A stretch of DNA of 64,000 nt from Candidatus Harrisonbacteria bacterium (GTDB lineage: Bacteria > Patescibacteriota > Minisyncoccia > UBA6257 > UBA11618): positions 4,912-68,911 of the forward strand of contig JAHFLN010000001.1 in NCBI GenBank assembly GCA_023244835.1, read 5' to 3'. A program made the translations under genes and the position numbers. The notes beneath the pieces were generated by a model. The model was not told the origin of the DNA. It ran no database searches and saw only the letters and a list, made by a program, of their open reading frames with translations. Numbering within the stretch: position 1 is the first letter of the stretch; the number at the start of each line of letters is the position of its first letter. Below are positions 18,444 to 54,327 of the stretch, in pieces.

Positions 18444-18447
18444 GGCC

Positions 18448-19546: not shown

Positions 19547-19578
19547 TAAAAAACAAGCGGGGCGAAGGGCCCCGCTTG
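19547..19578 (-). terminator. Rho-independent terminator after ORF 19613..19948
   Basis: CAAGCGGGGC-GAAG-GGCCCCGCTTG plus T-run on minus. Confidence 0.6.
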
Positions 19579-19612
19579 GTACGGAAATCCATGATTACCG
19601 ATCCTTGCATGG

Positions 19613-19948: not shown

Positions 19949-20030
19949 ATGTCACCTCGTTTCGGTTTCGATTGGAATACAAGGGATTTCTCCCACTGCC
20001 GGACACGATACCACGAAACCAATGCGTCGC

Positions 20031-21152
20031 CTAGATATCCGTGAGCGCTCCCGCCTTGATGCGACGGACCGAGAATTCCCTCGCCGTATCGCCGTTCACA
20101 TCGATCGTAATCATGCCCGTGATGCCTTGGTATCCTTTCGTCGCATACAATGCATCGCGTACGCACGCCGATTCCGTGCCGCCGCATTTTCCGATCGCGT
20201 CGGCTAATACGTTATAGCCGTCAAACGGCAGGGCCGCATAGATTTCCTGGCTTGGCTTCTTTCCGTATGCCTTCTCGTATGCCGCCATATATTCCACGAA
20301 TGCCGGGGCTGAGGCATCGTACGCGTATTGCGTGATGTAGAACCCCTCCGCATCCGGGTTTACTACAACCTCCTTGAAGCCGAAGTATTCGTTGCCGAGC
20401 ACGGGGATCTTCAAGCCGAAGTCCTTGCCCTGCTTGATGAACGCATTCGCCGTCACGGTTGAATTCATCACTGCGACTATGATTTGCGGCTTCAAGGCCG
20501 CGAGTTTCGCGAGCTCTGTCCGCACGTCGTACTCCTTCGAATTCACGCCTTCCGCGCCCAGGATGGCATTCCCCGCTCTCGCTCCGAAGTCCGCGACGAA
20601 CGCGTCTTTCATGCCCACGGTATAGTCCGCATTCTCGAAAAGGATAGCGACGCTCTTATAACCTGCCTTCGCGAGGAATGCCGACATCGCTTTCGCGGTC
20701 GCGACGGACGATGCGGACGTGCGGAACACGTAGTCGCCCGCATCGGTAATCTTCGGCGAGGTAGAAACCGGCGTGAAGAGAACGGCCTTCGCGGTTTCGG
20801 TGATCGGCGCCATGGAAAGCATCGAACCGCTGCAGACGCCGTTCACCACTATCGAAACCTTATCGACGGCGAGGAGCTTCTGCGCCGCAGAGGCCGCCTG
20901 CTTGGGATCGCATGCGTCGTCTTCATATACCATTTCTACCTTCTTGCCGGCGATTTCCGGCCGCTCTAAGGCGGCGAGCTTCCAGCCGCTCGCAACATCC
21001 TCGCCGGACGATCCCGCAACCGGGCCGGTGAAGGGGCCGACATAGCCGATCTTAATCGTATCTGCTCCTGCGCCGTCCTTATTTCTTTTAAACGCCATAT
21101 AACCCCCGACTGCGACGATGATTATTACGACTATTATCCAGATTTGTTTCAT
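20031..21152 (-). CDS. ABC transporter substrate-binding protein, LivJ-like paralog
   Basis: MKQIWIIVVIIIVAVGGYMAF anchor. Confidence 0.8.
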   Translation of the reverse strand: MKQIWIIVVIIIVAVGGYMAFKRNKDGAGADTIKIGYVGPFTGPVAGSSGEDVASGWKLAALERPEIAGKKVEMVYEDDACDPKQAASAAQKLLAVDKVSIVVNGVCSGSMLSMAPITETAKAVLFTPVSTSPKITDAGDYVFRTSASSVATAKAMSAFLAKAGYKSVAILFENADYTVGMKDAFVADFGARAGNAILGAEGVNSKEYDVRTELAKLAALKPQIIVAVMNSTVTANAFIKQGKDFGLKIPVLGNEYFGFKEVVVNPDAEGFYITQYAYDASAPAFVEYMAAYEKAYGKKPSQEIYAALPFDGYNVLADAIGKCGGTESACVRDALYATKGYQGITGMITIDVNGDTAREFSVRRIKAGALTDI

Positions 21153-21169
21153 ATGATTCTTTCTTCGGC

Positions 21170-22309
21170 TTAATCAACCGGCACCGGCGCGTCGTTCCTG
21201 ATTTGCTTCATCACGAAGCCTAAGTCCGAGTTCCCATTCGCGTCGAGGGAGAACGTGCCCATCAAGCCCGTCCACTTCTTTATGTTTTCGAGGAGCCAAT
21301 CCTTCACTTTCGCGCTGTCGTCACCCTCCGCTCGCAAACCCACGACCATCATCATGATCGCGTCATGCGTTGCCGCGGCATGGAAGGCGATGAGCGGATC
21401 CCTCTCGTATTTCGCCTTATATGCCGCGAGAAAATCCTTCCACGCGGCGCTTTCGCCGTCATATGCGGGATCGGCGAAGTATAAGCCCTCGAACGAGCCG
21501 ACGATTTTCTTCGCGTCGCCGTTCAAGGCAAGCGTGAAGTCTGAAAAAAGCGGCGCATCCAGCTTTTGTTCCTTGACTTGCTTCATGAAATTGCCCGCGG
21601 AGAGCCCCGTCTGCGAGGCGATCAATATCGCATCGGCACCCCGCGCTTTCAGTTTCGCTATGATAGTGCGGAAATCGTTCGTCCCGGGCTGGAACTGCTC
21701 GTCTATCGCTATTGCGCCGCCGCCCGCCATGATCGTTTCCTTGAAGCTCTTCGCAATATCTAACGTATATTCAGTCACTTCGGAAACCGAGGCTACTTTC
21801 TTATAGCCCATCTTTAGCATCGCATTCGCGATGTCCCGGCCCGCCAGTATGTCAGAATTCGCTGTGCGGAAAATGTATTCGCCTGCGGCATCCACATTGC
21901 TTCCACCTGTTACCGGCGTCATCACGATCGCCTTGTTCTCGTTCGCGACAGGAGCCGCGGCGATCGTGCCGTTGCTACACATACCACCCACGATGTAGCG
22001 GATGCCGTCTACCGAGACGAGCTTCGTTATGGCCGCAAGACCGGTCTTACTGTCGCATTTCGAGTCTTCGACCGTGAGCTCGAGCGGGTGGCCGTTCACG
22101 CCTCCTTTGGTATTTATCTCGTCGATCGTGAGGCGGGCCGCATTCACCATATTCTCGCCCGCGACGGCCAGGTCTCCGCTCAATATCGTCGCGATGCCGA
22201 TTTTTATCGGCGCCGCATTCGCATCGAGAGGCGTCGCCTTGTCTTTATTAACTATCAGATATCCTCCCGCCACTATAACGACCGCGGCCCATATCCAGAG
22301 ATTTTTCAT
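21170..22309 (-). CDS. ABC transporter substrate-binding protein, LivJ-like paralog
   Basis: MKNLWIWAAVVIVAGGYLIV anchor. Confidence 0.8.
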   Translation of the reverse strand: MKNLWIWAAVVIVAGGYLIVNKDKATPLDANAAPIKIGIATILSGDLAVAGENMVNAARLTIDEINTKGGVNGHPLELTVEDSKCDSKTGLAAITKLVSVDGIRYIVGGMCSNGTIAAAPVANENKAIVMTPVTGGSNVDAAGEYIFRTANSDILAGRDIANAMLKMGYKKVASVSEVTEYTLDIAKSFKETIMAGGGAIAIDEQFQPGTNDFRTIIAKLKARGADAILIASQTGLSAGNFMKQVKEQKLDAPLFSDFTLALNGDAKKIVGSFEGLYFADPAYDGESAAWKDFLAAYKAKYERDPLIAFHAAATHDAIMMMVVGLRAEGDDSAKVKDWLLENIKKWTGLMGTFSLDANGNSDLGFVMKQIRNDAPVPVD

Positions 22310-22384: not shown

Positions 22385-24490
<2,106 letters not shown>

Positions 24491-34223: not shown

Positions 34224-35429
34224 TTATTGCGGGGTGCTTGTCGCGGTAGTCGCGGCCATCATTTCCACCTTACCGCCCTTCACCACCTCGCCGCTGTAGC
34301 CGCTCTCGCGGTCGCCGTCCGGCTTGATCGTGATCGAGCCCGATGCGCCCTGCCAATCCTTCACGGTGCGGAACCAGTCCGCGAGCTTCGCGCCGTCGTC
34401 TCCCACGGCCATCAGGCCCTCTTTCGCCATATAAACGCCGTCGTACACGGTCTGGCCGTAGGACTTGAACGGCATATCAACACCGAACTTTGCTTTGTAG
34501 GCCTGATCCAATGCCGCGAACTTCGTATTCGCCGGGTCAACCGCGAATTCGGCCGCGAGCGCACCTTCCAAAATATCCTTGTATTTCTCGACCGTCGCGC
34601 GGTCGCCTACGAACGCCTCGTTCACGAGCATCTTCGGCTTCCACTTCAAGTCGACTAATTGCTTAATGACCCGCTCGCCGGATGCCGGCGTCTGCGCGTT
34701 CAGGAAGAGCGCGTCGGGCTTCGCCGCCTTTAACTTTGTAAGCATCGAGCGGAAATCGGTCGCGCTCGTCGGGAACTCCTCCTTCACCACCGTACCGCCT
34801 AATGCTTCGAACGAAGCGCTGAATGCCTTGAAGATGCCCAAGGGGTAGTCAAGCTGCTCCTGAATCATCGCGACCTTCTTCCAGCCTTTCGCGGCCGCGG
34901 CCTTCGCCAACACCTCGCCCTGCGTCGCGTCACTCGGATAGTCACGCACGAAGAAACGGCTCTTGCCCGTCAAGTCGGGACTGCTCGAGCCGGTCGAGAG
35001 CATGAGTACCTGGCCCGCCTCCGCGACCGGGATCGCCGCGAGCGATTCGCCACTGCAGAACCCGCCGAGAATGAAATGAACCTTGTCGACGTTTACCAGC
35101 TTCTGCGCCGCGCTCGTCGCGTCCTTACCGCTGCACTTACCATCTTCATAAATAACTTCGAGCGGCCGGCCATTTACGCCACCCGCGGCGTTGATTTCTT
35201 CAACCGCGAGCATGACGACGTTCCGCTTCATTTCCCCATATGACGCGCCATCGCCCGACAAGGGAGCGATGAAACCGATCTTAAGCGGCTCGACAGCCAC
35301 CGGAACCGTGCTCGTCGCGACGGTCTCCTCAACCGGCGCTTCAGCAGGCGCGCCGAGCATGGCGTACCCCGCCCATGCGACCACGCCCAACACGACGACC
35401 CATATAATAGCTTTCGCTGTAGTGTTCAT
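34224..35429 (-). CDS. ABC transporter substrate-binding protein, LivJ-like, TM-anchored
   Basis: Peripla_BP_6 pattern. Confidence 0.82.
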   Translation of the reverse strand: MNTTAKAIIWVVVLGVVAWAGYAMLGAPAEAPVEETVATSTVPVAVEPLKIGFIAPLSGDGASYGEMKRNVVMLAVEEINAAGGVNGRPLEVIYEDGKCSGKDATSAAQKLVNVDKVHFILGGFCSGESLAAIPVAEAGQVLMLSTGSSSPDLTGKSRFFVRDYPSDATQGEVLAKAAAAKGWKKVAMIQEQLDYPLGIFKAFSASFEALGGTVVKEEFPTSATDFRSMLTKLKAAKPDALFLNAQTPASGERVIKQLVDLKWKPKMLVNEAFVGDRATVEKYKDILEGALAAEFAVDPANTKFAALDQAYKAKFGVDMPFKSYGQTVYDGVYMAKEGLMAVGDDGAKLADWFRTVKDWQGASGSITIKPDGDRESGYSGEVVKGGKVEMMAATTATSTPQ

Positions 35430-35547: not shown

Positions 35548-35635
35548 GGAGGGGTCGCATAGCGGCCTAGTGCACCATCTTGGAAAGGTGGCATACCGAA
35601 AGGTATCGAGGGTTCGAATCCCTCCCCCTCCGCCA
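35548..35635 (+). tRNA. tRNA-Ser (anticodon GGA), class II with long variable arm, CCA encoded
   Basis: Acceptor GGAGGGG/CCCCTCC; anticodon stem CCATC/GGTGG; loop TTGGAAA; T-loop GGTTCGAATCC; TTGAAC-17-TATACT promoter upstream. Confidence 0.85.
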
Positions 35636-35656
35636 GATTGGCAACTTTGAACCAAT

Positions 35657-36430
35657 ATGAATACATGGACTAAAAAGAGTATAGAACTGGCGCGTAAACC
35701 GGGATATTTAGATGCCTTGGGCGCTATTTATGTTATGAATATAAATCCTAGTAGACCACTAACGGAAGAAGTTGAGAAAAAAATACGAGAGGCTTTCCAT
35801 AATAGAAAAAATAAAGAGTTAGTTCATCTGTTAATTCAAAACGAAGTCTTTCCGGTCAAGGATTCTTATGTCGGATTTTTAAGACTTAACCCTGCGGCTA
35901 TTGATCAAAATCCGATAACTATCAATAGAATATCAGAAAGGCTTTACTCATTGGGGATTGAAGCACTTCTTAAGGAGGCAACTCGTCCTAAAGAGACAAA
36001 TCGTCAACTCGGACACTCATTCAAAAAATGGTTGCCTCAATTAGGTTATCCCGTACTTAATGTAGAAGAGTTTGCCAATACTCGAGGTGTGGCCATCCTT
36101 GCCGGTGGGGACGCACAACTTGCAAAATACGCTAGAGAGAAGTTGGGCTGTGAATTATCCAAAGGTATTGATTTTGTTTTAAAGAAAGGAAAGAATCATA
36201 TTATTGGTGAAGCTAAATTTCTTACAACTCCTGGAGGAGAGCAAGATCGAGGTTTTGATGACGCATCAAATTTTATTAAAGGAAAATTGCGCCCAAATGT
36301 GAAAAGAATAGCTGTTTTGGATGGCTATATCTGGGTAGAACGAACTGGTGGGCTCCACAATAAGATCGTGATGAACAACCTTGATATTTTTAGTGCTCTA
36401 CTCCTTCCCGAATATATTAAAAAGTTTTAG
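35657..36430 (+). CDS. Putative type II restriction endonuclease, PD-(D/E)xK-like
   Basis: AT-rich gene beginning 22 bp after the tRNA; candidate GIDFV...IIGEAKF catalytic motif; convergent with and overlapping the methyltransferase stop. Confidence 0.5.
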   Translation: MNTWTKKSIELARKPGYLDALGAIYVMNINPSRPLTEEVEKKIREAFHNRKNKELVHLLIQNEVFPVKDSYVGFLRLNPAAIDQNPITINRISERLYSLGIEALLKEATRPKETNRQLGHSFKKWLPQLGYPVLNVEEFANTRGVAILAGGDAQLAKYAREKLGCELSKGIDFVLKKGKNHIIGEAKFLTTPGGEQDRGFDDASNFIKGKLRPNVKRIAVLDGYIWVERTGGLHNKIVMNNLDIFSALLLPEYIKKF

Positions 36431-38187
36431 GTTGCAGAATAAACCTCAAAAGAAGCTTTTAATTTAGCTCCTTCTTTTTCTATAAGACTAATAGCATTTT
36501 TATTGAGGTCTATTCCTATCCAATTTCTTTTTAGTTCTTCAGCGGCTAGTAGAGTAGTACCCGACCCCGCAAAACAATCCAAAACCAAGTCGTCTTGCGT
36601 TGTAGAGCTCTGAATAATTTGTTTCAATAAGTCTCGATTTTTCTGTGTTGGGTAAAGAGAGCTCTCGAAACCAGGATCTTTAAAGTCCCACACGTCCTGA
36701 AGTTTCTTGCCTCGGTTTTCGTCTGCGTAGATTTTTTTTCGAGGATTCCCTGAACTAGACCACTCAATCAATCCTTCTTTATCTAGGCGTGTTAATTCTT
36801 CAGGGTTATATCTCCAATGCCTTCCTTTCGGTGGGAGCATGCCTTTCCATTCTCTGCCCGTAGGACCATTTCGTGTCTCTCCTTTAGCGTGAAGAGGTGT
36901 GGTGGCATACCTACGCCCTTTTTTGTCAATCTTGGGAAATTGTTTTATGATCTCCTCCTCAGTTAAGGCTATACGATGGTCCGTCCAAGACATTGGGTCA
37001 TGTCCATTTGGTTTTGATTTGGAATAAAAATATATTACATCTTTTATGTTCCCGAAAGCTTTCCTATCGAAATTTTTTGGATTACATTTTATTCTGGTAA
37101 TGTCATTTCTAAAATTTTCCTCTCCGAATACTTCGTCCATTAATACTTTTACATAATGTCCTATTTTCTGATCAATATGGAGGTATATGCTACCTGTTTC
37201 GGAAAGTAATTCTCTAAGAAGGATCAGTCTTTTTCTTAAAAACTCAAGGAAATCTGTGTTTGTAAGTTTGTCGCTATAAAAGTTTTCTTCGTTATAACCA
37301 ACAAAATCTTGCCCTGTACCAAAAGGTGGATCGATATAAATTAATTCGATATTGCCCTTTATATTTTTATTTTCATACAAATTCTTAAGAACACTGAGAT
37401 TGTCGCCTGCAATTAATTTATTTACAGACTTTGATCCATATTTCTTAGTAAGTTTAAGTTGAGCCGCTTTGATTTCAAGAACTTCTTCTTCCTTTATTTT
37501 TCCTCGATAAATCAACTCAGCTCCTCCTTTAGGACGACGTGCATGAGGAATCGTATGAAGAATATTTTCTGCTCTCTCCCTCTCGGAATATCTTTCGTTG
37601 GATTTAATAATATCTATAACTACACCTTGGATAGTTAACCGTTCAGGTTCAATAAAAAGAGGTAGCATTGTTTGGTTCGCAGGCTGTAGCCGTATCCTAT
37701 TTTTCTCCCTAAAAAACTTTTTAAGTGTGGCGGACTCCTGATCAATCAAAGCAACAACTTTTTGACCATTGTGTGCTACCGATTGACTCTGAATCAACAC
37801 AATGTCTCCATCGTTGATATTCTCATCAATCATACTATCGCCATACACACGTAGAGCGTAAACATCACTACTTTTAGGCATTTTCGATTTCGGGATAGCG
37901 ATTGTCTCCTTTTCTTGAATTGCTTCAATTGGCTCGCCTGCAGCAATAGTACCCAGGAGAGGAATGCTTACCAGGGGTTCGCCAGAGGAAATACTTATAG
38001 AACGTGCTTTATTTTCAGATTTATCCAAATATCCACTATCTCGTAGTTTGTTTATATGAAAATGTGCAGTAGAAACAGAGGCAAGTTTAAAATGCCTCTG
38101 TATTTCCTCTAAGGAGGGGGCATACCCTTTCTTTTTGGAAGACTCTTTTACGAAATCGAAGACCTCTTTTTGCTTTTTGGTGAGCAT
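36427..38187 (-). CDS. LexA-like repressor (HTH plus S24 peptidase) fused to beta-class amino-DNA methyltransferase (DPPF ... FAGSGTT)
   Basis: N-terminal ~205 aa align to LexA (IAAGEPI cleavage site, LRVYGDSM Ser, DGDIVLI, NGQKVVALID, TLKKF Lys); C-terminal motif IV IDPPF then motif I DCFAGSGTT. Confidence 0.8.
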   Translation of the reverse strand: MLTKKQKEVFDFVKESSKKKGYAPSLEEIQRHFKLASVSTAHFHINKLRDSGYLDKSENKARSISISSGEPLVSIPLLGTIAAGEPIEAIQEKETIAIPKSKMPKSSDVYALRVYGDSMIDENINDGDIVLIQSQSVAHNGQKVVALIDQESATLKKFFREKNRIRLQPANQTMLPLFIEPERLTIQGVVIDIIKSNERYSERERAENILHTIPHARRPKGGAELIYRGKIKEEEVLEIKAAQLKLTKKYGSKSVNKLIAGDNLSVLKNLYENKNIKGNIELIYIDPPFGTGQDFVGYNEENFYSDKLTNTDFLEFLRKRLILLRELLSETGSIYLHIDQKIGHYVKVLMDEVFGEENFRNDITRIKCNPKNFDRKAFGNIKDVIYFYSKSKPNGHDPMSWTDHRIALTEEEIIKQFPKIDKKGRRYATTPLHAKGETRNGPTGREWKGMLPPKGRHWRYNPEELTRLDKEGLIEWSSSGNPRKKIYADENRGKKLQDVWDFKDPGFESSLYPTQKNRDLLKQIIQSSTTQDDLVLDCFAGSGTTLLAAEELKRNWIGIDLNKNAISLIEKEGAKLKASFEVYSAT

Positions 38188-38242
38188 ATTGATATTATAG
38201 AAAATAAATAGAAAGTATACAAATCAAGTTATCCACAAGGTC

Positions 38243-39238
38243 ATGGCAAAGCATCACATCGTTCAAGACAAATATCTCACTCAATGGAGAAAAAGCGGAA
38301 CAGAAAATCAGCTCAATATTTATGTTATTCATGAAAATCAAATTATAGAAAGAGGACCGGGATGGAAGGGTTTTTGGAGAGATGATTTTAATGTGCTTGA
38401 AGATGACGGTGAAAAGTCCTACCTCCCAGAGGAAGTTACGGTAATTATTGATACAAAGGGTATTGAAGCTGTCAGGAAAATAAATACTACAAGCGAAGAA
38501 TTATTATCAGGTATGGATAGGAGTTGCGTAGCTTTTTATACGGCATTGCAGTACACAAGAACTCCGCGACACAGAGAGGAAACAAACAAATTGATCGAAG
38601 CTACTACCCGACATTTTATGAGAAAAGACCTTCCATCACCAGATAAGGTGCATATGTCCAAAGATAAGATACTCGAGTATAACCCACAGAATAAAATGGA
38701 GGAGGATGCTCTGGATGTGATAAGTAAGATGACGCAAGAGGAAATCAACTCACAGATTTTTAAGGCAATACACGATGATACAGTCAGGATCGGCCTTACA
38801 AAGACAGGCCACTCAAAAGGCATTCTGAAAGTAGATCGTCATGCCGAGAAGATATTTGAAATGCAGTGGCTATTCCTAGTAACTCCTGAGGGTACGTCCT
38901 TCATTACCTCGGATAGCCCTTGTTTTACAATATCCACATCGAAACTGAATGGGCTAATATCGCCTCACTCAACGGTATATTTCCCATTAAGACCAGATAT
39001 ATGTCTTTACATAAAACCGAGCATGAAATCAAAAGCAGAATACTATATGAAGTTAGATAAGGGACAGGTTAGGGATATAAATTCACTGATACTCTCAAAC
39101 AGTACCCAATGTGCAGTTGCCAAGGACAAAATACATTTAGAGAAACTGACCAAGAACTTCGATTACAAAAACCACAGAAAGTCACGCGTTATATCTATTA
39201 GCGAATCGGGGCCATACACAATGTTTACCGCAGAATAG
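38243..39238 (+). CDS. DUF4238-like protein
   Basis: N-terminal KHHIVQDKYLTQW matching the DUF4238 HhxPQxYL motif; AT-rich; adjacent to R-M pair. Confidence 0.5.
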   Translation: MAKHHIVQDKYLTQWRKSGTENQLNIYVIHENQIIERGPGWKGFWRDDFNVLEDDGEKSYLPEEVTVIIDTKGIEAVRKINTTSEELLSGMDRSCVAFYTALQYTRTPRHREETNKLIEATTRHFMRKDLPSPDKVHMSKDKILEYNPQNKMEEDALDVISKMTQEEINSQIFKAIHDDTVRIGLTKTGHSKGILKVDRHAEKIFEMQWLFLVTPEGTSFITSDSPCFTISTSKLNGLISPHSTVYFPLRPDICLYIKPSMKSKAEYYMKLDKGQVRDINSLILSNSTQCAVAKDKIHLEKLTKNFDYKNHRKSRVISISESGPYTMFTAE

Positions 39239-39479
39239 TAAATTAACCTGAGTAGCCTGTATATTTTAGGCTAGACAGAATAATCAACTGCATTTTGCCC
39301 TATATCTGACTTTGGCTTCGGTACTTCAAACCATTCAGGGTGGACTTTGTAGATAACCCTTAGTTTCTGTATACTTTTATCAAGATCCTCGAATTTGAGC
39401 CGTACTTTTGGTTCAAAGTTACGGGCATCGTCCCCGCCTAATGCAAAAGAGATGGCCTTGCGCCATCCCCTTTTGCATT

Positions 39480-39600
39480 AGATGTGATGGCTTGGAGAGG
39501 ATTCGAACCGAAGGTCCCCTATTTTCAAGGAGGCTTACAGCCGACTATGAAAATAGCGGCCTCGACCGAAGGAAGAGGCGAATCCCCCCCGCCCTTGCAT
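39480..39600. other. Degenerate tRNA-like remnant(s) at far edge of island
   Basis: Plus strand ATAGCGGCCT..ACCGAAGGAAGAGGCGAATCCCCCCCGCCC resembles tRNA-Ser D-loop, variable arm and 3' end; minus strand carries a GGTTCGAATCC T-loop-like motif. Confidence 0.4.
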
Positions 39601-39614
39601 TACTCCTCTTTAAC

Positions 39615-40079
39615 TTAATCCTTCCCAGACTTCGCGCTTATTCCATCGCGTACGATACCCTCAAGCACTGCCGCCGTACTGGCAGCAATGATAGAGCCGA
39701 AGGCAACGAGAAGTCCTATAGCAACCCCGCCTGCCCGGTCATCGCTCGTGTTCAGCATAATGAATACTTCCCCTACCGCGACGAAGCCAATGATAACAAA
39801 GGCGCACCGCCTAATAGTCCGCATGGCATTTACGACTTGTTGCGAAAACGCCTTACCCTCTCGGATATATCGGAGCGCCGTGAATGCCTGATAGAGCGCC
39901 GTGAAAAACGCGATTGATCCTATATAAGCGAATAGTATGAAAGGATCGGAATACATTTCGAAATTCGTGGCGTTCGCGTTCACGCCCTCGACGCGAGGTT
40001 CCCATACGAGAAACGCAAGCGCGCCAATGCCGATAAGCATGATGACTGCTTGAAGAAATATCGTCGGGCCTTTTTTCAT
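39615..40079 (-). CDS. Hypothetical polytopic membrane protein
   Basis: Four predicted TM helices; start chosen at MKKGPTIF. Confidence 0.5.
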   Translation of the reverse strand: MKKGPTIFLQAVIMLIGIGALAFLVWEPRVEGVNANATNFEMYSDPFILFAYIGSIAFFTALYQAFTALRYIREGKAFSQQVVNAMRTIRRCAFVIIGFVAVGEVFIMLNTSDDRAGGVAIGLLVAFGSIIAASTAAVLEGIVRDGISAKSGKD

Positions 40080-40116
40080 ATATAGTTCTTTATGCATACT
40101 ACATTCATCGTAAGAC

Positions 40117-40563
40117 ATGAAGACTACTTTCACCATCGGGGCGTTCGGGATGATATTCGATGCCGAATGGCGCGTGCTTCTCTGCCATAGGACGGACTAC
40201 GACCTATGGAACCTGCCCGGCGGCACTGTCGAGCACGGCGAATCTCCCTGGGATGCCGTGGTGCGCGAAATCAAAGAAGAAACGGGACTGGATGCCATCG
40301 TCTCGCGACTCGCGGGTATCTACAGTAAACCCGACCAGAATGACGTCGTTTTTTCTTTCGTCTGTACGATAACGGGCGGCGTGATAACGCCGAATAACGA
40401 AGCTGATCGTATAGAATGGTTCGCGCCTGCTTCCTTGCCTCCGAATACCTCACCGAAACAAGTCGAGCGTATTATGGATGCCGTTCGGGATCCGAATGCC
40501 ATGCATATGAAAATCCAAACCGGGAAATCCTCGATCGAACTCATCAGGGACGGCCGGCTTTAG
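40117..40563 (+). CDS. NUDIX hydrolase
   Basis: Nudix box GGTVEHGESPWDAVVREIKEETG. Confidence 0.85.
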   Translation: MKTTFTIGAFGMIFDAEWRVLLCHRTDYDLWNLPGGTVEHGESPWDAVVREIKEETGLDAIVSRLAGIYSKPDQNDVVFSFVCTITGGVITPNNEADRIEWFAPASLPPNTSPKQVERIMDAVRDPNAMHMKIQTGKSSIELIRDGRL

Positions 40564-45966: not shown

Positions 45967-46263
45967 TTACGACTCAAGGATCGCGAGGATATCCGCCTCG
46001 TCGGCAACCAAATACTTCTTGCCGTCAAGCTCGACCTCGTCCGGCCCGTATTTCTTGAAAAGCACGAGGTCTCCCACCTTCACGGACATCGGATTCAGCT
46101 CCCCTCGGTCATTCCGCTTGCCCGCGCCGACCGCGAGCACGCGCCCCTTTACCGGCCGTTCTTTTTCCGCTGTATCCGGCAGGACGATGCCTGATTTCGT
46201 CATGCGGTCTTCTTCCATGGCATCGAGAAACACGCGATCAGCAATGGGTTTTATGGTCATCAT
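45967..46263 (-). CDS. groS: Co-chaperonin GroES (as the C-terminal 98 aa of a 328 aa ORF)
   Basis: MMTIKPIADRVFLD...GKRNDRGELNPMSVKVGDLVLF typical GroES; no stop separates it from the upstream nucleotidyltransferase-fold region. Confidence 0.85.
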   Translation of the reverse strand: MMTIKPIADRVFLDAMEEDRMTKSGIVLPDTAEKERPVKGRVLAVGAGKRNDRGELNPMSVKVGDLVLFKKYGPDEVELDGKKYLVADEADILAILES

Positions 46264-46953
46264 AGTACCTAGGAGTATATCCTGTTTTTTCCCATGGTCA
46301 AGAGCGCGAACGCTTTCTCCCGGCGCTTTTTTCGGACGGAAGCACAGCTCGACGCGGCTTTCCGAAACGCTGATGCGCGATTCGCTTGACGCGCCGAATC
46401 GAATGCTCTGCGCCGCGATCCGGCGCTCCTGAATACGCCTCATGAGCGCTTCGCCCCAGGCGCCGAATGCGAAATCGAAGAGCGTCTCCGCGCACGCGAC
46501 AAGCGGGATCTTCTCCTTCCTATAGCGATATCTCACATTCGCGAATATCCCCTCGCGCATCGCCCCTGATGCCGTAAGGAATTCCCCAATCGCCTCCCGC
46601 GTTCCCACGACGGGCACGAGCGACGCGGCGAGGGCCCGTGCATACGCGTCCTCCGGCGCGTCGAGGCGGGCATCCGTCGCTATAAAATGATTCAGGCAAA
46701 AGCCTCTGCCGCGCGCGGCGATATGCGTACGGAGTCCGAGCAAACGGAAAATCCCCAAACAGAAAAAACGCGCCGTATACATACGGCCCGGCCGCGTTCC
46801 GACGATCACATCCCAGTCGGAATTCCTATGGGCATCGCCTGTCGCGAGCGATCCCGACACGAGCACTAAGTCGACGAAGGGGATCCACTCGAAGATCCAG
46901 ACCTTCCCGAGCAGGCCGTGCCATGCGTGGTCGAAAATTCCTTTTTGGTCCAT
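46264..46953 (-). CDS. Nucleotidyltransferase-fold domain ORF continuous in-frame with groES
   Basis: Pol-beta-type motif LVSGSLATGDAHRNSDWDVIV (G[GS]-x9-13-DxD); ATG at 46953 three nt after the rmuC stop. Confidence 0.5.
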
Positions 46954-48036: not shown

Positions 48037-48107
48037 CCGTTCAGGATATGCCAGCCGGGCAAAAAAAAATAGACGGAGCCGTTCCGTCAGTAACCTATAA
48101 AAAAATA

Positions 48108-48282
48108 AACGGTTGTCGACCCATCATACCCCTCCCATGCGCTCGTGATCTTGGGCGGGCTCACGAAGGAAATAGCCGTAGCCTGCAAACAGATCGCATG
48201 TCCAGGACTTCAACGCATCGCCAAGACGATACTCTTTCATGGACGACGTGTGACCGTGCAGTGATGGGCCGACAAACCGTTT
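48108..48282 (-). ncRNA. Candidate structured RNA 1: 20 bp terminal helix enclosing ~130 nt, intrinsic terminator at 48061-48088
   Basis: AAACGGTTGTCGACCCATCA (48108-48127) pairs with TGATGGGCCGACAAACCGTTT (48262-48282); TTGACG-17-TAAATT promoter-like at ~48285-48315 on minus. Confidence 0.35.
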
Positions 48283-48345
48283 AACCTTATTAATTTACAT
48301 TAATGACTCCATCGCGTCAATATCCGTCCGCACTGGGCAAAAAAA

Positions 48346-48511
48346 ATAGATAGCCGGTTCCTCGTATTTCCATCATGCGGCCTTTCGGAACATCGCTCCT
48401 GGAAATAGCCGAGAGGGCCTATGATCCGTATCCATGGCGTCTATGCCTCGCTGGCAACGTTAGCGAGACTCTTCCACGAGGGATCATAGCGAGGAACCGG
48501 TCGCTATCTAG
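48346..48511 (-). ncRNA. Candidate structured RNA 2 or complex terminator: 19 bp terminal helix plus T8
   Basis: ATAGATAGCCGGTTCCTCG pairs with CGAGGAACCGGTCGCTATCTAG; internal nested helices; A8 on plus strand = T8 on minus. Confidence 0.35.
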
Positions 48512-48543
48512 TACTTACACGGTAGTCTGAAAACTGCTTTGTG

Positions 48544-49272
48544 TCAATGACAGCTCGGATCGGCGGGGTTGATTTCGCAGAGTTGTGACTTCACGACCGT
48601 GACGGTCTTCGGAATCTCCACTGACTGGCCCCCCGCATTACCGCACTTCAGAGTATAGGTCGTCGTGCGCGGCGGCGTTACCGTTACTCCGCCGGAAGAA
48701 GGATCGGCGAGCTTGCCGACCGTCGGCAGTATGCGACACTCGTCGGCATCCTCGCATTGCCAGGTGAGGCGCGATGTCTTCTGAGGCGATATGAGAACTT
48801 TCGGCCCCGCATTAAAGGAACAAGCGATGTCGAAAAGATGCGGCGGTTCGACAGGCACGATGCACTTCGCGAGAGAAACCTTATATGTCGGCCCGTTGAA
48901 ATGAAGCCACCCTACCACGTCAGATCCCCATGCATATCCCGAAAGACTGCATCCCAAAGCTTCCGTTCCCACGACTTTAGGTCCGTATGTCGCCCCCTTC
49001 AGCTTCACGATTCCGTCCCAGTCCCCGGAATTCGCGGAAATGACATTCGAGCAATCACCGCCCTCGGTTGCCGAGCAGACCCGGGCAGTATCCCCCGCAA
49101 GCTTGATCCACCCCACATTCTCCGACCATGCATATCCTCCGAACGCTCCCGTTTCCTCGTCTATCGTTGCCTGGTACCCGGGACCCGCAAAGCCGACCCA
49201 GCCGATATTTTCCGACCACGCATGGCCGGAGAGCGAGACGAGCGCGAAGAGCGGAACGAACAGAAATCCCAT
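48544..49272 (-). CDS. Secreted protein with three internal YAWSENIGW-type repeats and Cys-rich C-terminal region
   Basis: Signal peptide MGFLFVPLFALVSLSGHA; repeats GHAWSENIGWVGFAGP, GGYAWSENVGWIKLAG, SGYAWGSDVVGWLHFNG. Confidence 0.6.
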   Translation of the reverse strand: MGFLFVPLFALVSLSGHAWSENIGWVGFAGPGYQATIDEETGAFGGYAWSENVGWIKLAGDTARVCSATEGGDCSNVISANSGDWDGIVKLKGATYGPKVVGTEALGCSLSGYAWGSDVVGWLHFNGPTYKVSLAKCIVPVEPPHLFDIACSFNAGPKVLISPQKTSRLTWQCEDADECRILPTVGKLADPSSGGVTVTPPRTTTYTLKCGNAGGQSVEIPKTVTVVKSQLCEINPADPSCH

Positions 49273-49278
49273 AGGGAA

Positions 49279-49800
49279 TTAGCAGAATAATCCTCCAAAG
49301 CAGACTATGGTTTTCAACACATTTCCGGCAGTTCCCAAAAAGGTATCGCCCCCATCTCCTGCCGCATTCTGCTTGGTATAGAGCGCCTGCGAACACGGGG
49401 CGGGCGCAGTCGCGCCGCATGATTTCGGCTTCGAACTGATTTGGAGCGAGACAACTTTTATGCCTGTAAGTTGGCCGCCTGAACATTGAAGACCCACGGT
49501 CATCGCGAGGCCGGCCGCGCTCGAGCCGTCGCTCTTACAATCGCACTTCCAGCCAGTCCATGTGCATGACGATCCGGCTTCGAGCCATGACGCGCGCGTT
49601 TCCCCGCCAAGGGTTATGCTCGTAGCCTTCAGGTTATTTACCGTCAAATCGCCCGCCTTCACCTGCCTTCCCGATCCTACCGTGATCGGTGAGGGCGCAT
49701 TGTTCAAGGGCGGAAGCGCCGTCGGTTCGGTGAATGCTAACGCAACGGATGCGATGGCTGACATAGCTGCGATCCCCCCGATAAACAAAGATTTCTTCAT
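49279..49800 (-). CDS. Secreted Cys-rich hypothetical protein, paralog A
   Basis: Signal peptide ...ALA|FTEP; shared block with the next gene (SCxWxGWKCDCKSD, KSCGAxAPAPC, C-terminal CFGGLFC). Confidence 0.6.
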   Translation of the reverse strand: MKKSLFIGGIAAMSAIASVALAFTEPTALPPLNNAPSPITVGSGRQVKAGDLTVNNLKATSITLGGETRASWLEAGSSCTWTGWKCDCKSDGSSAAGLAMTVGLQCSGGQLTGIKVVSLQISSKPKSCGATAPAPCSQALYTKQNAAGDGGDTFLGTAGNVLKTIVCFGGLFC

Positions 49801-49849
49801 AGTAGTATCATACCCCGGAACCGAACCTCCGCTCTTGTGGATAAGTCCC

Positions 49850-50740
49850 TCAGCACCAGAAGCAGAGCGCCTTTACCACTTTCGTGGCCGCTTTTACCAC
49901 GGTCGTCGCAGCCGATGTCACGGCAGTCACCGCCGCTTTTACTACCGTCGTACCGACCGCAACCGCGGCCTTAACCGCCGCAACGCCCGTTCCTACCACA
50001 AGCTCGATCGGATTAGTCTTCGGATCAAGGGCGAGTTTCGACACGTCCGAGGCAAGTCCCTTTACGGCATCCACTACCCCGCCCCCGATCGATTTCACCG
50101 TCTCGAATGTCGTTTTCACGCCTTGAACGACGATATCCGTCGCAGCGCTTACTACCGCAACCGTCGTCTTCACCGCAAACGCGCCAACGGCAACCGCGGC
50201 TTTAACAGGAGCGAGTGCTATATCCGCCGCAACCTTTGCCCCACCCGAAAGCCCGGCTGTCGCAGACTCGAGGAATGTCCCGCTATCCTGATTGTTCCGC
50301 GTGTATATCCCTTGCGTGCACGGAGCGGGAGCTTTCGCGCCGCACGATTTCGTCTTTGAGCTCACAGCCAGTCCGAACAGGCCCGCATCCTCCACGCGGC
50401 CGCCCGCGCATTTCACGCCGAAGGTGATCGCAAGGCTCACAAAACTCGAGCTGTCGCTCTTGCAGTCGCATCTCCACCCCTCCCATGAGCACGACTGGCC
50501 CGCGGGAAGCCATGAGGCGCGCGTTTCTCCTCCTAAACCGATGCCGTTTAACGCTTTTATATTTTCTAATGTGAGGTCGCCCGCTTTCGTTTGCGGAACA
50601 GAACTCACATTCAGAAGCTTAGGCGAAGAAAAGCCAGCAGGAGAAGCGATGGGTTCCGTGAATGCGAGCGCCGTTCCGGCCGACGCGCATAGGGCGAGAA
50701 CCGCGCCGCATACGATATGCGCCCGATTGATACTTTTCAT
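49850..50740 (-). CDS. Secreted Cys-rich hypothetical protein, paralog B, with C-terminal Ala/Val/Lys/Thr-rich 11-mer repeat region
   Basis: Same N-terminal block as paralog A, then ~120 aa of VKAAVAVGTTV-like repeats, ends CFWC; DNA-level repeats 49860-50240. Confidence 0.6.
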   Translation of the reverse strand: MKSINRAHIVCGAVLALCASAGTALAFTEPIASPAGFSSPKLLNVSSVPQTKAGDLTLENIKALNGIGLGGETRASWLPAGQSCSWEGWRCDCKSDSSSFVSLAITFGVKCAGGRVEDAGLFGLAVSSKTKSCGAKAPAPCTQGIYTRNNQDSGTFLESATAGLSGGAKVAADIALAPVKAAVAVGAFAVKTTVAVVSAATDIVVQGVKTTFETVKSIGGGVVDAVKGLASDVSKLALDPKTNPIELVVGTGVAAVKAAVAVGTTVVKAAVTAVTSAATTVVKAATKVVKALCFWC

Positions 50741-50741
50741 C

Positions 50742-51689
50742 TCAACGAGGAGGCGGCTGGCCGCCCTGCGGAGGAGGCATTGATGGCGGCGTACATCCTC
50801 CTGGAGGCATCGTGGGCATCGGGCCGCCTGGCTGCATTATAGGACATGGAGGTAACGAAGGGGCCGATGCTTGCACGGTAACCGATGTGGCGCCCAGTGC
50901 CTGACCCTTCGTCCGCAAGGCGGGCACCCTGAGCATTTCCGACCATGAAATGACATCCAGGATATCCCCATCCCTCGTCGTATAACCGTATTTCCCGTTA
51001 ATCCCGATACATACCTCGACTTCGCGACCGGTTGTGTCGGTGCCGACATAGCGATATGCCGCAGTCAGGCGATCCTTAATGGACTGTTTCGAACAGATTC
51101 CGTCGGTATCGCCTCCGAGTGATATCTTATATCTCGTCTCATTGCACTGCGCGGCCGTAAGCGCTGTCCCGTATGCGTCATATGCCCCCCACTTACAAAA
51201 CGGCTCAAGCGGCCCCTTGCCGCACTCTTCCTGGGTTTTTATGCCCGCGCAATTAACGCTTTGCGCTATCTGCGCGAGACTTGGAGGCCTCGGCGCCTCG
51301 ACGACCGGCTGAGGAGTCGGTTCCGGAACAGGCTCAGGAACTATGACGGCGGCCTGAGCCGATGATCTTCTACTCCTCCATCGCGATGTTCTCACTGCTG
51401 GAGTTCCTAATATGGCATCGACAGCTTGGGCGGCATATATTCCGTCCCCATTACCCTCGTCACCATAGAGCGCAAGCTCGACCTCCGTGCATAATTCGGC
51501 ATCCAAGACCTCGCCCTTCGCGCACGCGACATCGAGCACCCTCGTCATCATGCTATATCCCGAAACATATCCCGCCCGATAGCTTTGGGCGTCAATGAAT
51601 CCATATATCAGTATCGCCGCGGCGATCACGATCACCGCGATACTTGCTATCCGCACATTCTTTCCCATATTTTTCATCATACCCCACAA
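50742..51689 (-). CDS. Membrane-anchored hypothetical protein with Pro-rich linker and Pro/Gly-rich C-terminus
   Basis: N-terminal TM; PEPVPEPTPQPVVEAPRPP linker; Cys-containing extracellular domain. Confidence 0.5.
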   Translation of the reverse strand: MWGMMKNMGKNVRIASIAVIVIAAAILIYGFIDAQSYRAGYVSGYSMMTRVLDVACAKGEVLDAELCTEVELALYGDEGNGDGIYAAQAVDAILGTPAVRTSRWRSRRSSAQAAVIVPEPVPEPTPQPVVEAPRPPSLAQIAQSVNCAGIKTQEECGKGPLEPFCKWGAYDAYGTALTAAQCNETRYKISLGGDTDGICSKQSIKDRLTAAYRYVGTDTTGREVEVCIGINGKYGYTTRDGDILDVISWSEMLRVPALRTKGQALGATSVTVQASAPSLPPCPIMQPGGPMPTMPPGGCTPPSMPPPQGGQPPPR

Positions 51690-51714
51690 CAGGACTTCGT
51701 CCCTTGTGGAAAAC

Positions 51715-52347
51715 TTATTTCTGGATCGTCACCGGGAACGTATATGATTTCTTCCCCGTCGCCGTTCCCGTTATCTCCACCAATATTGAATAATCGCCGA
51801 GCTCTTTCCAGAAATGCTCGATTGACTTGCTCTCCCCCTTCTTCACCGAACCAGAAATCGCTTGCTTGTCCCCCCAATTCACCGAATATAAGAGATCCTC
51901 GACGTCCGCTCCTATAAGAAGCGAGAGATTTTGCTGGACGGGACGGACGATAGATACGCTCGATTGCTCGCCTAGAGTCCCAATCGGCACCCCTAAAACC
52001 TGTCCAAGCTCCTTCCTCGCGACCTCGATGCCCGCTTTCGTCATCTCGTTAGCGAAACCCGTTACGGCCTCCTTCGGCTTCTCAATAAGGAGTTCCATAC
52101 CTGATTTCACGAGCGATGCGCCCGCATCTTTCGCCGTCTGCGCATGACCCGGCGTCTGATCGAATAACTTCCCGATGCCTATGGAAAGCGATTCGCCGCT
52201 TATCGCGCGCGTCGCCTTCCCGATATCGAAGCCGGAATTCCAGAAATACCATATGCCGCCCGCGACGGCGACAAGAAGCACGAGATAGAGAATTCCGCCT
52301 CCTCCTTTCTTACCTCTCGACCGGCGCGGATATTCGTCGTCGTTCAT
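51715..52347 (-). CDS. Membrane-anchored hypothetical protein
   Basis: N-terminal basic region plus TM helix; first gene of the cluster. Confidence 0.5.
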   Translation of the reverse strand: MNDDEYPRRSRGKKGGGGILYLVLLVAVAGGIWYFWNSGFDIGKATRAISGESLSIGIGKLFDQTPGHAQTAKDAGASLVKSGMELLIEKPKEAVTGFANEMTKAGIEVARKELGQVLGVPIGTLGEQSSVSIVRPVQQNLSLLIGADVEDLLYSVNWGDKQAISGSVKKGESKSIEHFWKELGDYSILVEITGTATGKKSYTFPVTIQK

Positions 52348-52367: not shown

Positions 52368-53480
52368 TTATTTGAAAATCTCCGGCCGATACCTATTGCT
52401 CGGGTTCCAATTGAGCCACCCCGCGGATAGGCCCGCGTCATGGATTGCCCGTATCTGCGCGCGTACCATCTCAGGCGTATAGTCCGCGCCCATATTGAAA
52501 TCCTGAATCCACGGCCTAATATTCGTGAATGGCTGATTTGCGGCCATAAATATCTCCTTCCCCTTCGCGAGCGTACCCGCCATCACCTCATAAGGATGCG
52601 CCGCCGGATTATCGAAGCCGAAATTGCCCGCGTCGAAATGCGACGGGTAAATCATCGGACAAATCGCATCAAATACTGCCGCGAGAGCCGGCGCCGACTG
52701 ACCGATACCGAGATCCGCCTTTCGCATAAAGGTGTAGCCGAAAATATCGGCGGTTAAGCGGATATCCGGATAGTCCCTCTTGATCTCATTTTTCAGATAA
52801 TTCGCGGCCTCTACGATAACATCGCTTTTTTCCCTACCAGCCCCTTCCCGCCAGAATGGATAAACCGCGGTCGTCACTCCTTCGGAGGGAAACCTAAAAT
52901 AATCGAAATTAATTTCACCGAAACCCGCGTCAACCGCTTCCTTCGCGATGCCCGCAACATGCGCCCACGCCTCCTTATTACTCGGATCGAGCCAATGCCG
53001 CCCTCCATTATCGCGCCATAAGCCGCCGCCAGCGCCGTGTACGGCCCAACTCGGCTTCTCTGCCGCTATATTATTATTCTGAAACACCACAAGCCGCGCG
53101 ATGGGGAAGATGCGCAGGAACCGCAAGCGGCGGATCGCCGCACGCAGACGATCATCGATTAAAACGCGCCCGGAATCGTCTTGGATATCCACAACGACCG
53201 CATTCGGCGCCATGTCACCCGAAGCGTCTTTTATAAGACTCACGATGCCGTCCATCTTTCCGCTCCGCAGGATCGAGGCGGTAATATACAGCGCTCGAAC
53301 TTCTGCCGGATATTCGAGAGGAGTAAGCGGCGGGAGAACGATCTGATCCGGAGCTACTACCGCTACCGCTTGAGCCTCCTGCCCCATAGACGCCGGAACG
53401 GGACGGGTGGTTATGAACGCCGCGCCCGATGCTGAAACAATCATAAGCGCCGATGCGAGCACTTTCGCCTTACCGGGCAT
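52368..53480 (-). CDS. Putative glycoside-hydrolase-like TIM-barrel protein (DUF4015-like), signal-anchored
   Basis: ...INFDYFRFPSEG... pattern; start chosen at MPGKAKVLASALMIV. Confidence 0.45.
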   Translation of the reverse strand: MPGKAKVLASALMIVSASGAAFITTRPVPASMGQEAQAVAVVAPDQIVLPPLTPLEYPAEVRALYITASILRSGKMDGIVSLIKDASGDMAPNAVVVDIQDDSGRVLIDDRLRAAIRRLRFLRIFPIARLVVFQNNNIAAEKPSWAVHGAGGGLWRDNGGRHWLDPSNKEAWAHVAGIAKEAVDAGFGEINFDYFRFPSEGVTTAVYPFWREGAGREKSDVIVEAANYLKNEIKRDYPDIRLTADIFGYTFMRKADLGIGQSAPALAAVFDAICPMIYPSHFDAGNFGFDNPAAHPYEVMAGTLAKGKEIFMAANQPFTNIRPWIQDFNMGADYTPEMVRAQIRAIHDAGLSAGWLNWNPSNRYRPEIFK

Positions 53481-54327
53481 ACGGGAAAATAACGATGAAC
53501 CACGCGGCGGCCGACAGGAGCACCGCGAGGACCTTCTCGGGAAGATTCGCAACGAGGCTTTTCCGAAGCTCTATCTTCTTCGGATCGTATTTATCCCGCA
53601 TGAATTCTCCGATCGCCTGCTTAAGCTCCTCAGCCGATGCCATAACCGCAAGACGCCCGTCACGGGCGACCGAAATCGTTCCCTTTTCCTCCGATACGAT
53701 GACGGCGAGCACGTCGGACACTTCGGCGATACCCAAGCCCGCGCTATGGCGCGTGCCGTACGATTCGATCTGCCCGAAATCCTGCGACAACGGAAGGTGC
53801 ACGCCGAATTTAGCAATAAGCCCGCCCGCGATTACAAGAGCTCCATCATGCCCCGGCGAGCTCGCGTCGAATATACTTTCAAGGAGAGGCTCTGAGATCT
53901 TCCCCTCGAGTGAAAATCCGCCGCTTAAGTGGCGGCCGATCGCTTCACGGCCCGTGAATACCACGATCATGCCGATTTTCTCCTTACTGAAACGCTCCGC
54001 AACCCGCACTACGCACTCAACAATACCCGTTCCCGGCCGTTTCTTCATCGAGGCTCCTCCCGCGCCTATCCATATGGCGATCATCTCGAAATATCTCCGC
54101 AGTTCCGCCTGGAATATAATCACAAGGCCGAGCAGAAATACGCTGAAAAAAAGATTCAACGCCGCGGCGGACAGACGTAAGCCAAATGTGTTTGCGGCGG
54201 CATAGACTACGGATACGACGATAATCCCGTACACGACGAAGAGCGACCGCGTCTGCTTCAGGAGCATGATAAGCCCGTACGTGAGGAACGAAGAAAGCCC
54301 GATATCGAGAATATCTATCAATCTCAT
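53470..54327 (-). CDS. cdaA: Diadenylate cyclase CdaA (c-di-AMP synthase)
   Basis: N-terminal TM helices; DAC domain motifs DGALVI, GTRHSAGLGIAE, AVIVSEE. Confidence 0.85.
   Translation of the reverse strand: MRLIDILDIGLSSFLTYGLIMLLKQTRSLFVVYGIIVVSVVYAAANTFGLRLSAAALNLFFSVFLLGLVIIFQAELRRYFEMIAIWIGAGGASMKKRPGTGIVECVVRVAERFSKEKIGMIVVFTGREAIGRHLSGGFSLEGKISEPLLESIFDASSPGHDGALVIAGGLIAKFGVHLPLSQDFGQIESYGTRHSAGLGIAEVSDVLAVIVSEEKGTISVARDGRLAVMASAEELKQAIGEFMRDKYDPKKIELRKSLVANLPEKVLAVLLSAAAWFIVIFPYAR

Follow-up and report, generated by a model that had tools for sequence, protein, structure and literature searches.

The prevailing view of the bacteria of the Candidate Phyla Radiation (CPR, Patescibacteria) is that they live in attachment to other cells. 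To our knowledge, no attachment molecules are known in this group apart from the type IV pili and Pam pili of Saccharibacteria. Type IV pili are the best-documented attachment organelles of the CPR (PMC6744442), and the Pam pilus of Saccharimonadia and Microgenomatia is a CPR-specific, Sec-dependent structure made of previously unannotated proteins with immunoglobulin (Ig)-like folds, together with the membrane-anchored PamR (bioRxiv 10.64898/2026.03.03.709456). Here, we analysed five genes, g1 to g5, of a Candidatus Harrisonbacteria bacterium, which an initial annotation made from the letters of the sequence had proposed as a candidate novel surface structure. The genes all lie on the minus strand and fill positions 48544-52347 of the window, that is, of the whole stretch of 64,000 nucleotides analysed (contig JAHFLN010000001.1, positions 4,912 to 68,911, assembly GCA_023244835.1). 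The locus resembles the Pam pilus in that it occurs in the CPR and encodes Sec-dependent, unannotated proteins, among them an Ig-like fold and a membrane-anchored accessory protein. However, it has no chaperone-like PamC/D genes, it is found in a Parcubacteria lineage and in a different neighbourhood, and no sequence relationship was found. Membership in the Pam pilus was rejected, since a scan with the NCBIfam CPR_pilus models (PamA/PamB/PamE/PamT, PamC/PamD) gave no match for g2-g5 at E<=1. The only Pam match was that of g1 to PamR (E 0.035; 13 bits, where the cut-off is 300).

We propose that the core of the locus may be a surface display or adhesion module, made of two undescribed and genomically linked protein families. 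We hold this reading tentatively and give it a probability of about 0.45. The first family, to which g3 and g4 belong, is predicted to consist of one or two small Sec-exported proteins with a six-Cys head and a variable, amphipathic tail with a hydrophobic tip; its mature N-terminal block is called the N-module here. The second family is represented by the tightly coupled downstream gene g5, whose product is predicted to be secreted and to contain WSENIGW repeats, an Ig-like domain and a Cys loop. Both families are apparently new, as judged from Pfam, NCBIfam and PDB sequences, where neither has a match, and our literature searches found no description of either.

In their plan, the two families recall two further kinds of system. 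Phage tail fibres and receptor-binding proteins attach through a conserved N-terminal region and differ in their exchangeable distal heads; some of the fibres end in a Peptidase_S74 intramolecular chaperone. Likewise, some relatives of the N-module carry fibre repeats and an S74 domain. In contrast to these, g3 and g4 carry Sec signals, contain neither shaft repeats nor S74, and are chromosomal genes that lie among housekeeping genes and for which viral contigs yielded no relatives. In cohesin-dockerin, S-layer homology (SLH) and choline- or cell-wall-binding repeat systems, one module likewise occurs on many cargos, the aromatic beta-hairpin repeats of g5 would make a plausible anchor, and one N-module protein itself carries dockerins. 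However, no homology to cohesin, SLH or CW_binding repeats was detected, and the docking considered below is hypothetical.

Linkage of the N-module and WSENIGW families

That g4-type and g5-type proteins may act together is supported most strongly by the genomic linkage of the two families and its decay over distance. In 11 of 11 distinct syntenic arrangements, down to 38% g5 identity, the gene directly upstream of g5 or its ortholog is of the g4 type; in close relatives, the two genes are at most 10 bp apart and overlap by up to 11 nt. Scanning metagenomes with the g5 alignment gave 80 loci that encode WSENIGW proteins with 28-46% identity to g5, and a hidden Markov model of the mature N-module was run on all open reading frames (ORFs) of these loci. 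This identified 57 N-module ORFs, spread over 44 of the 80 loci and nearly always less than 2 kb from the WSENIGW gene, of which 55 share the strand of that gene and none lies inside the WSENIGW ORF. Their density falls from 0.29 per kb in the first kb from the WSENIGW gene to 0.11 per kb at 1-2 kb, 0.06 at 2-3 kb and 0.014 at 3-4 kb; beyond 4 kb there is none in a total of 109 kb. An N-module neighbour was present in 31 of 54 WSENIGW protein clusters (50% identity), and hence the association is not one lineage counted repeatedly.

The initial annotation had treated the five genes as a unit and had named a lack of conservation of the block as a finding that would refute its proposal. We found the complete block only in L002-L004 (84% g4 identity; loci of relatives are given under our own handles) and, with one extra ORF between g1 and g2, in L017 (72%). 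In L005-L007 and L015 (54-55%), g1, g4 and g5 are present, and g1 is separated from g4 by an unrelated gene on the opposite strand. L009 has g1, a 98-residue ORF that matches the N-terminus of g2, and g4 and g5, and L008 (43%) keeps only the g4-g5 pair, with an 11-nt overlap and in a different neighbourhood. In the distant Parcubacteria loci L010, L011, L012 and L018 (one of them labelled Harrisonbacteria; 38-46% g5 identity), a g1-like PKD gene, absent in L012, is followed by an often present opposite-strand DUF4383 gene, one or two g4-like genes and the g5 ortholog, all located before rmuC-groES-groEL. The relatives are labelled as Parcubacteria group, Harrisonbacteria and Nealsonbacteria, and a narrow-pattern scan of genome contigs gave four loci. 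Since the five genes occur together only in close relatives, the five-gene unit is recent, and the old core is the g4-type gene or genes with g5, and with g1 nearby. The proposal of a novel surface structure therefore stands only in part: it is favoured by the export signals, by relatives with fibre and dockerin features and by the g4-g5 linkage, but the five-gene unit on which it was built is not conserved.

The individual genes differ in their degree of conservation. g5 is conserved to the same degree as CdaA and housekeeping genes, with 92% identity to L002 and 68% to L005, compared with 91% and 68% for CdaA. For g4 the values are 84% and 55%, and for g1 80% and 47%, while g2 and g3 are 66-68% identical to their counterparts in L002 and absent from L005. 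The gene g2 is also absent from L015, and its relatives amount to seven protein clusters among 5.8 billion proteins. The long-tailed g3 was found only in close relatives (L002, L017, P0150, P0152). Both g2 and the long-tailed g3 thus look like recent, lineage-specific additions.

Predicted architecture of the encoded proteins

The coordinates of the genes and their parts are collected in Table 1. As the initial annotation had stated, the genes are separated by short gaps, namely 25 bp (g1-g2), 1 bp (g2-g3), 49 bp (g3-g4) and 6 bp (g4-g5). Judged by this spacing, g1-g5 may form one operon; strong terminator-like sites are present only downstream of g5. For each of the five proteins, the predicted location is extracytoplasmic. 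The two N-terminally anchored proteins, g1 and g2, were borne out: in both, the N-terminus is basic and is followed by a single, strongly hydrophobic segment. However, about 38% of the ORFs in the window pass the same crude test of N-terminal hydrophobicity, and the run of hydrophobic N-termini continues upstream through the DUF4015 protein, a 220-residue protein and a Trypsin_2 protease, so that this property alone is not statistically striking.

In agreement with the initial annotation, which had recognised no enzymatic motifs and had named confident homology to unrelated housekeeping families as a finding that would refute it, no enzyme or housekeeping family was matched by g1-g5 in Pfam, NCBIfam and PDB sequence-profile searches, and g2-g5 gave no match at all in Pfam or NCBIfam at E<=1. 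Motif scans of g1-g5 found neither the LPXTG-type C-terminal motif of sortase-anchored surface proteins and pili nor a PEP-CTERM motif, and regex scans found neither a lipobox ([LVI][ASTVI][GAS]C) nor a class III signal (G|FTLIE). The proteins g1 to g5 end, in this order, in ...TIQK, ...QPPPR, ...CFWC, ...CFGGLFC and ...PSCH.

Table 1. Coordinates of the five genes, their predicted parts and other genes of the window
Feature	Nucleotides	Strand	Residues	Remarks
g1	51715-52347	-		210 aa
g1 basic N-terminus			1-18	
g1 transmembrane segment	52240-52293	-	19-36	hydropathy
g1 linker			~85 aa	between transmembrane segment and PKD domain
g1 C-terminal PKD domain	51718-51987	-	121-210	ortholog profile
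g2	50742-51689	-		315 aa; gene callers and public calls start 3 codons later (312 aa)
g2 transmembrane segment	51597-51650	-	14-31	hydropathy; after basic N-terminus
g2 Pro-rich stretch 1			117-137	
g2 Pro-rich stretch 2	50745-50855		279-315	
g3	49850-50740	-		296 aa
g3 signal peptide			1-26	
g3 N-module	50510-50662	-	27-77	
g3 six-Cys head	50291-50509	-	78-150	
g3 Ala/Val/Lys/Thr amphipathic tail	49865-50290	-	151-292	
g3 terminal CFWC	49853-49864	-		
g4	49279-49800	-		173 aa
g4 signal peptide			1-22	cleavage ALA|FTEP
g4 N-module	49585-49734	-	23-72	
g4 six-Cys head	49366-49584	-	73-145	
g4 short helical tail			146-166	
g4 terminal CFGGLFC	49282-49302	-		
g5	48544-49272	-		242 aa
g5 short signal-like N-terminus			1-16	
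g5 three-repeat WSENIGW beta-hairpin domain	48868-49224	-	17-135	
g5 Ig-like domain	48589-48837	-	146-228	
g5 C-terminal Cys loop	48550-48579	-		CEINPADPSC
cdaA (context, outside core)	53470-54327	-		Pfam DAC/CdaA_N, TIGR00159
DUF4015 putative glycosyl hydrolase (context, outside core)	52368-53552	-		Pfam DUF4015; likely start near 53480
Tsp45I-type restriction enzyme	35657-36430	+		low-GC island
LexA DNA-binding domain, S24 peptidase and N6/N4 DNA methylase fusion	36427-38187	-	586 aa	low-GC island
DUF4238 protein	38243-39238	+		low-GC island
fusA	22385-24490			
tuf	16144-17343			

g3 and g4 are paralogs with 53% identity over 158 residues (E 3e-51), which agrees with their earlier description as Cys-rich paralogs that share an N-terminal block. 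They contain 10 and 8 Cys, respectively, and both have signal-peptide-like N-termini, with a hydrophobic segment before the conserved A|(F/W)TEP. The family alignment shows the invariant block A|FTEP..PP..N.P.P...G.G.Q.K.G.L...ITLG..TR.SW, followed by six head Cys that are invariant in the g4 family; the tip C(L/F)GG(L/I)FC is found in most, not all, members, and many members have no tail. Among 155 N-module proteins, Ala precedes (W/F)TEP in 93%, position -3 is Val or Ala in 82%, and the motif starts at a median position of 27, which together describe a textbook signal-peptidase I site. A model of a g4-type protein predicted with AlphaFold2 (AF2) shows the head as a small beta-sheet domain (predicted local distance difference test, pLDDT, 76-89) followed by a helix. 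No structural match was found for the six-Cys head, and neither g3 nor g4 has a match in PHROG or Pfam.

The full-length g4 family comprises 29 clusters. An exhaustive profile search returned 3,873 cluster representatives at E<=1e-3, of which about 20 match over the full length, and the remainder have only the N-terminal 60-85 residues in common. The proteins that share the N-module are 79-950 residues long and have very different C-terminal parts. Among these parts are GNVGIGT-type fibre repeats that match tail-fibre PHROGs and a Peptidase_S74 chaperone (P0182, P0196); a 566-residue fibre (P0169) carries a g4-type head at its end, and an N-module protein of L094 has three dockerin repeats.

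For the tail of g3, the initial annotation had described 11-residue repeats. The amphipathic character holds, since the hydrophobic periodicity is 3.7 residues and the autocorrelation peaks at lags 7 (z=4.1), 11 (z=2.8) and 18 (z=2.7), values that indicate an 11/3 amphipathic helix. However, discrete 11-mer tandem repeats were rejected, as Tandem Repeats Finder detected none at the DNA level. In its period and lags the tail resembles the repeats of apolipoproteins, synuclein and late embryogenesis abundant (LEA) proteins as well as hendecad coiled coils; it differs from them in having no homology and no discrete repeat, and in being extracellular, Ala/Val/Thr-rich and equipped with a Cys-flanked hydrophobic tip.

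Two further loci illustrate the variation around the N-module. In L079 (7320-9611), three tandem N-module paralogs are nearly identical in their first ~60 residues, paralogs 2 and 3 are identical for ~100 residues, and the C-terminal heads are unrelated, an arrangement that has the appearance of cassette-like diversification of the distal domain. Phage tail collar heads were considered for these paralogs, an idea that was dropped because Pfam gave no confirmation at E<=0.01. A Woesearchaeota chromosome (CP060219.1; L016, 7806-8525) encodes a 239-residue secreted or anchored protein in which the 'ITLGGERRTTWP' neck motif recurs and is followed by a Cys-containing head, and this suggests that the neck and head architecture may be common to CPR bacteria and DPANN archaea.

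The product of g5 contains three AWSENIGW-type repeats, which lie at residues 18, 48 and 114 and correspond to the internal repeats seen before. Basic residues are missing from its N-terminus in the source lineage (MGFLFVPLFALVSLSG); canonical signal peptides occur in more distant orthologs. The orthologs keep invariant W, G and C positions and the C-terminal CEI.P..P.C loop, and the relatives of g5 number more than 3,389. The AF2 model (pLDDT 87) consists of N-terminal beta-hairpin repeats and a C-terminal beta-sandwich, which has an Ig-like, PKD or FN3 fold. In the PDB, the structure matched only generic Ig, beta-meander or barrel folds, and in BFVD the matches were weak (TM-score about 0.3) with nothing specific. 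g5 gave no PDB sequence-profile match, and CW_binding-type repeats were not found in it.

g1 is predicted to be a type II membrane protein with a single extracellular PKD domain. A profile of nine g1 orthologs matches the PKD-domain structure 4xed_A (E 9e-5), and six of the nine orthologs match Pfam PKD_4 and five match PKD (best E 1.8e-5); for the g1 sequence alone the match stays below threshold (E 0.026). The signature WGD(G/K)...H.W...GDY is invariant among the orthologs. In its C-terminal domain with WGDG...H.W...GDY, g1 thus resembles PKD-domain surface proteins, from which it differs by having one PKD domain on an N-terminal anchor and a linker of about 85 residues, with no catalytic or S-layer domain. 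g2, the lineage-specific accessory protein, contains 10 Cys, and its description as Pro-rich applies to the two stretches listed in Table 1.

A surface-display reading and its alternatives

If the two families form a display or adhesion module, the following mechanism can be envisaged. Cleavage of g3 and g4 by signal peptidase would expose an N-terminus of the form (W/F)TEPT-Pro-rich-Q.K.G.L...ITLGG..R.SW, and disulfides would stabilise the six-Cys head. The N-module may serve as a shared module for attachment or sorting, by which many cargo heads (shafts like those of tail fibres, dockerins, Cys-rich heads) would be docked to a partner close to the cell. This partner would be the WSENIGW protein, acting as adaptor, wall anchor or assembly factor. 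The heads would point away from the cell and bind their target, which could be a partner cell, a host cell or a different surface, and the amphipathic tails, whose tips are hydrophobic and flanked by Cys, may touch membranes. g1 may act as a tether or organiser of the assembly; it may equally belong to the upstream cdaA-DUF4015 envelope operon. The analysis shows the genes, their predicted export signals, the paralogy, the distribution of the families and their genomic linkage, whereas a physical interaction, retention at the surface and a role in adhesion are inferred, and a fibre or envelope structure, including polymerisation, would be a hypothesis that extends this further. CPR bacteria encode MdbA/VKOR disulfide machinery (PMC6744442). 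We observed VKOR genes within a few kb of the g1/g4/g5 cluster in L011 (1289-2281) and L018 (121-1101), where they adjoin DUF4015 on the opposite strand.

In a wider version, the (W/F)TEPT module and the WSENIGW proteins would be an undescribed, CPR-wide surface-display system and the main means of surface decoration and partner recognition in Parcubacteria and their ultrasmall kin. The N-module would then be a dedicated N-terminal sorting or docking signal on thousands of cargo proteins, and the WSENIGW proteins its cognate anchor or assembly factor. We regard this extension as doubtful. Should the two families indeed form a display or adhesion module, they would give a starting point for the annotation of CPR surface proteins that are now 'hypothetical', which number in the thousands, would help in the prediction of host-binding heads and would supply targets by which uncultivated Parcubacteria could be labelled or enriched. 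Without an interaction of the families, the locus would be no more than a set of lineage-specific secreted proteins.

Several points weigh against the display module. Any complex, filament or retention at the surface would be a prediction from genomic data, and the AF2 monomer leaves the N-module disordered (pLDDT 43-58). No N-module neighbour was present at 36 of the 80 WSENIGW loci, many of which are on short contigs. Vertical inheritance of synteny in streamlined genomes could account for part of the conserved gene order beside rmuC-groESL. Moreover, the repeats of g5 match no known wall-binding repeat in Pfam (E<=1), and g4 and g5 have no recognisable anchor, be it LPXTG, lipobox or C-terminal transmembrane segment.

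Synteny can also be taken as a full explanation, in which unrelated lineage-specific secreted and membrane proteins were kept together by vertical inheritance of gene order and have no joint function. Relatives indeed share synteny all the way from the Trypsin_2 protease to the M48 peptidase, hydrophobic N-termini are common in the window as described above, g2 and g3 come and go, and in relatives the run of g1 and g4 is broken by genes on the opposite strand. However, it is hard to reconcile with the adjacency of N-module and WSENIGW genes in differing contexts, its occurrence across the clusters and its steep decay with distance, or with the pair that L008 retains in another neighbourhood, and we consider it unlikely. 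Alternatively, the two families may be accessory components of CPR type IV pili, such as adhesins or envelope and assembly factors, that have drifted from the pil operon. The standing of type IV pili as CPR attachment organelles, noted at the outset, counts for this, as does the presence of PilB at 8 and PilC at 5 of the 80 WSENIGW loci, directly next to the WSENIGW and N-module genes. In L039 (5338-9624), the order is PilB...PilC, major pilin, WSENIGW, PilD and three minor pilins, so that the WSENIGW gene lies between the major pilin and PilD, and L060, L069, L079 and L094 have WSENIGW, a small transmembrane protein, one to three N-module genes and then PilB. On the other hand, NusA/trigger-factor synteny is common to six of the eight PilB loci, which hence represent few independent events, and pilin-like ORFs have a flat density with distance from the WSENIGW genes (0.01-0.04 per kb). 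The class III signal is missing from g1-g5, and neither the surroundings of the cluster nor the window ORFs that were scanned against Pfam contained a pil gene. A general association with type IV pili was set aside (about 10% of loci, no decay), and we keep the pilus explanation as a minor and quite improbable one.

The strongly variable C-termini could also be those of secreted effectors resembling polymorphic toxins. In this case the conserved N-terminus would be a trafficking module for exchangeable C-terminal payloads, and the amphipathic tail and hydrophobic, Cys-flanked tip of g3 and g4 would act on target membranes, with g5 as delivery, immunity or chaperone partner. A conserved N-terminus with a hypervariable C-terminus over about 3,900 clusters, the tandem paralogs of L079 with near-identical N-termini and different heads, the amphipathic tail of g3 and the hydrophobic tips (CFWC, CFGGLFC, CFGFC) would all suit such a role. 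However, searches of Pfam, NCBIfam and PHROGs revealed neither a toxin nor an enzyme domain, many family members have no tail, and the relatives with recognisable domains are structural (fibre, S74 chaperone, dockerin); in addition, g5 is itself predicted to be secreted, unlike typical immunity proteins, so that we give effectors little chance. The same holds for an assignment of g1, and possibly of the whole block, to a cyclic di-AMP (c-di-AMP) and envelope operon with cdaA and DUF4015, in which g1 would be an extracytoplasmic partner of CdaA analogous to CdaR. Here, g1 follows the overlapping cdaA-DUF4015 genes within about 20-60 bp in L002, L005, L009 and L015, and the g1-like gene of L011 comes directly after cdaA. 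Yet g1 has a PKD domain and not the YbbR domains of CdaR-type partners, the g1-like genes of L010 and L018 have no adjacent cdaA, and the g4-g5 pair is left unexplained by this operon. A prophage or tail-fibre remnant, finally, would fit the N-module relatives that match tail-fibre PHROGs and Peptidase_S74, as well as the Ig-like domain of g5, which matches a virion-structural PHROG (E 2e-8) and is weakly like cyanophage structural proteins. Against it, the locus is part of a chromosome segment with a uniform G+C content (GC) of 0.56, is flanked by conserved housekeeping genes in synteny and contains no other phage genes, all its proteins have Sec signals, and the g4 and g5 families have no relatives in 2.9 million viral contigs. 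A phage origin was rejected on these grounds as highly improbable.

Flanking genes and other features of the window

The genes cdaA and DUF4015 are located directly upstream of g1 and are read in the same direction. The co-directional upstream flank comprises an FAD oxidase, the Trypsin_2 protease, a 220-residue transmembrane protein, cdaA and DUF4015. The downstream flank, likewise co-directional, consists of rmuC, a groES gene extended at its N-terminus (see below), groEL, lemA and an M48 peptidase. The same genes were also found on a 289.7-kb metagenomic contig.

The gap between g5 and rmuC (48037-48543, 507 nt) contains three CCGTCTATTTTTTT-like terminator tracts (48063-76, 48099-112 and 48340-53) and a promoter-like TTGACG-17-TAAATT on the minus strand (48320-48292). 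On the same strand, the 191 nt from 48285 to 48095 have a closed predicted fold (z = -3.8) and no Rfam match, and we regard 48095-48285 as a candidate small structured RNA. The region is partly kept in L002 and has shrunk to 28-98 nt in L005 and L015.

The groES ORF (45967-46953, minus strand) encodes 328 residues, with the Cpn10 domain at residues 234-325. Its N-terminal extension of about 230 residues has a weak match to nucleotidyltransferases of the MntA-antitoxin-like type (E about 2e-3). The long ORF is also called in relatives, with 328 residues in L002 and 321 in L017, and in L012 NTP_transf_2 and Cpn10 are two separate genes.

Further away, a low-GC island (35548-40136; 0.38-0.42 compared with 0.56) adjoins tRNA-Ser(GGA). 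With its three genes listed in Table 1, it looks like a horizontally acquired restriction-modification island with an unusual LexA-methylase fusion. In the str operon, four tandem Peripla_BP_6 paralogs, which are branched-chain amino-acid-type binding proteins, lie between fusA and tuf (17439-22309, minus strand), and a fifth paralog is located at 34224-35429.

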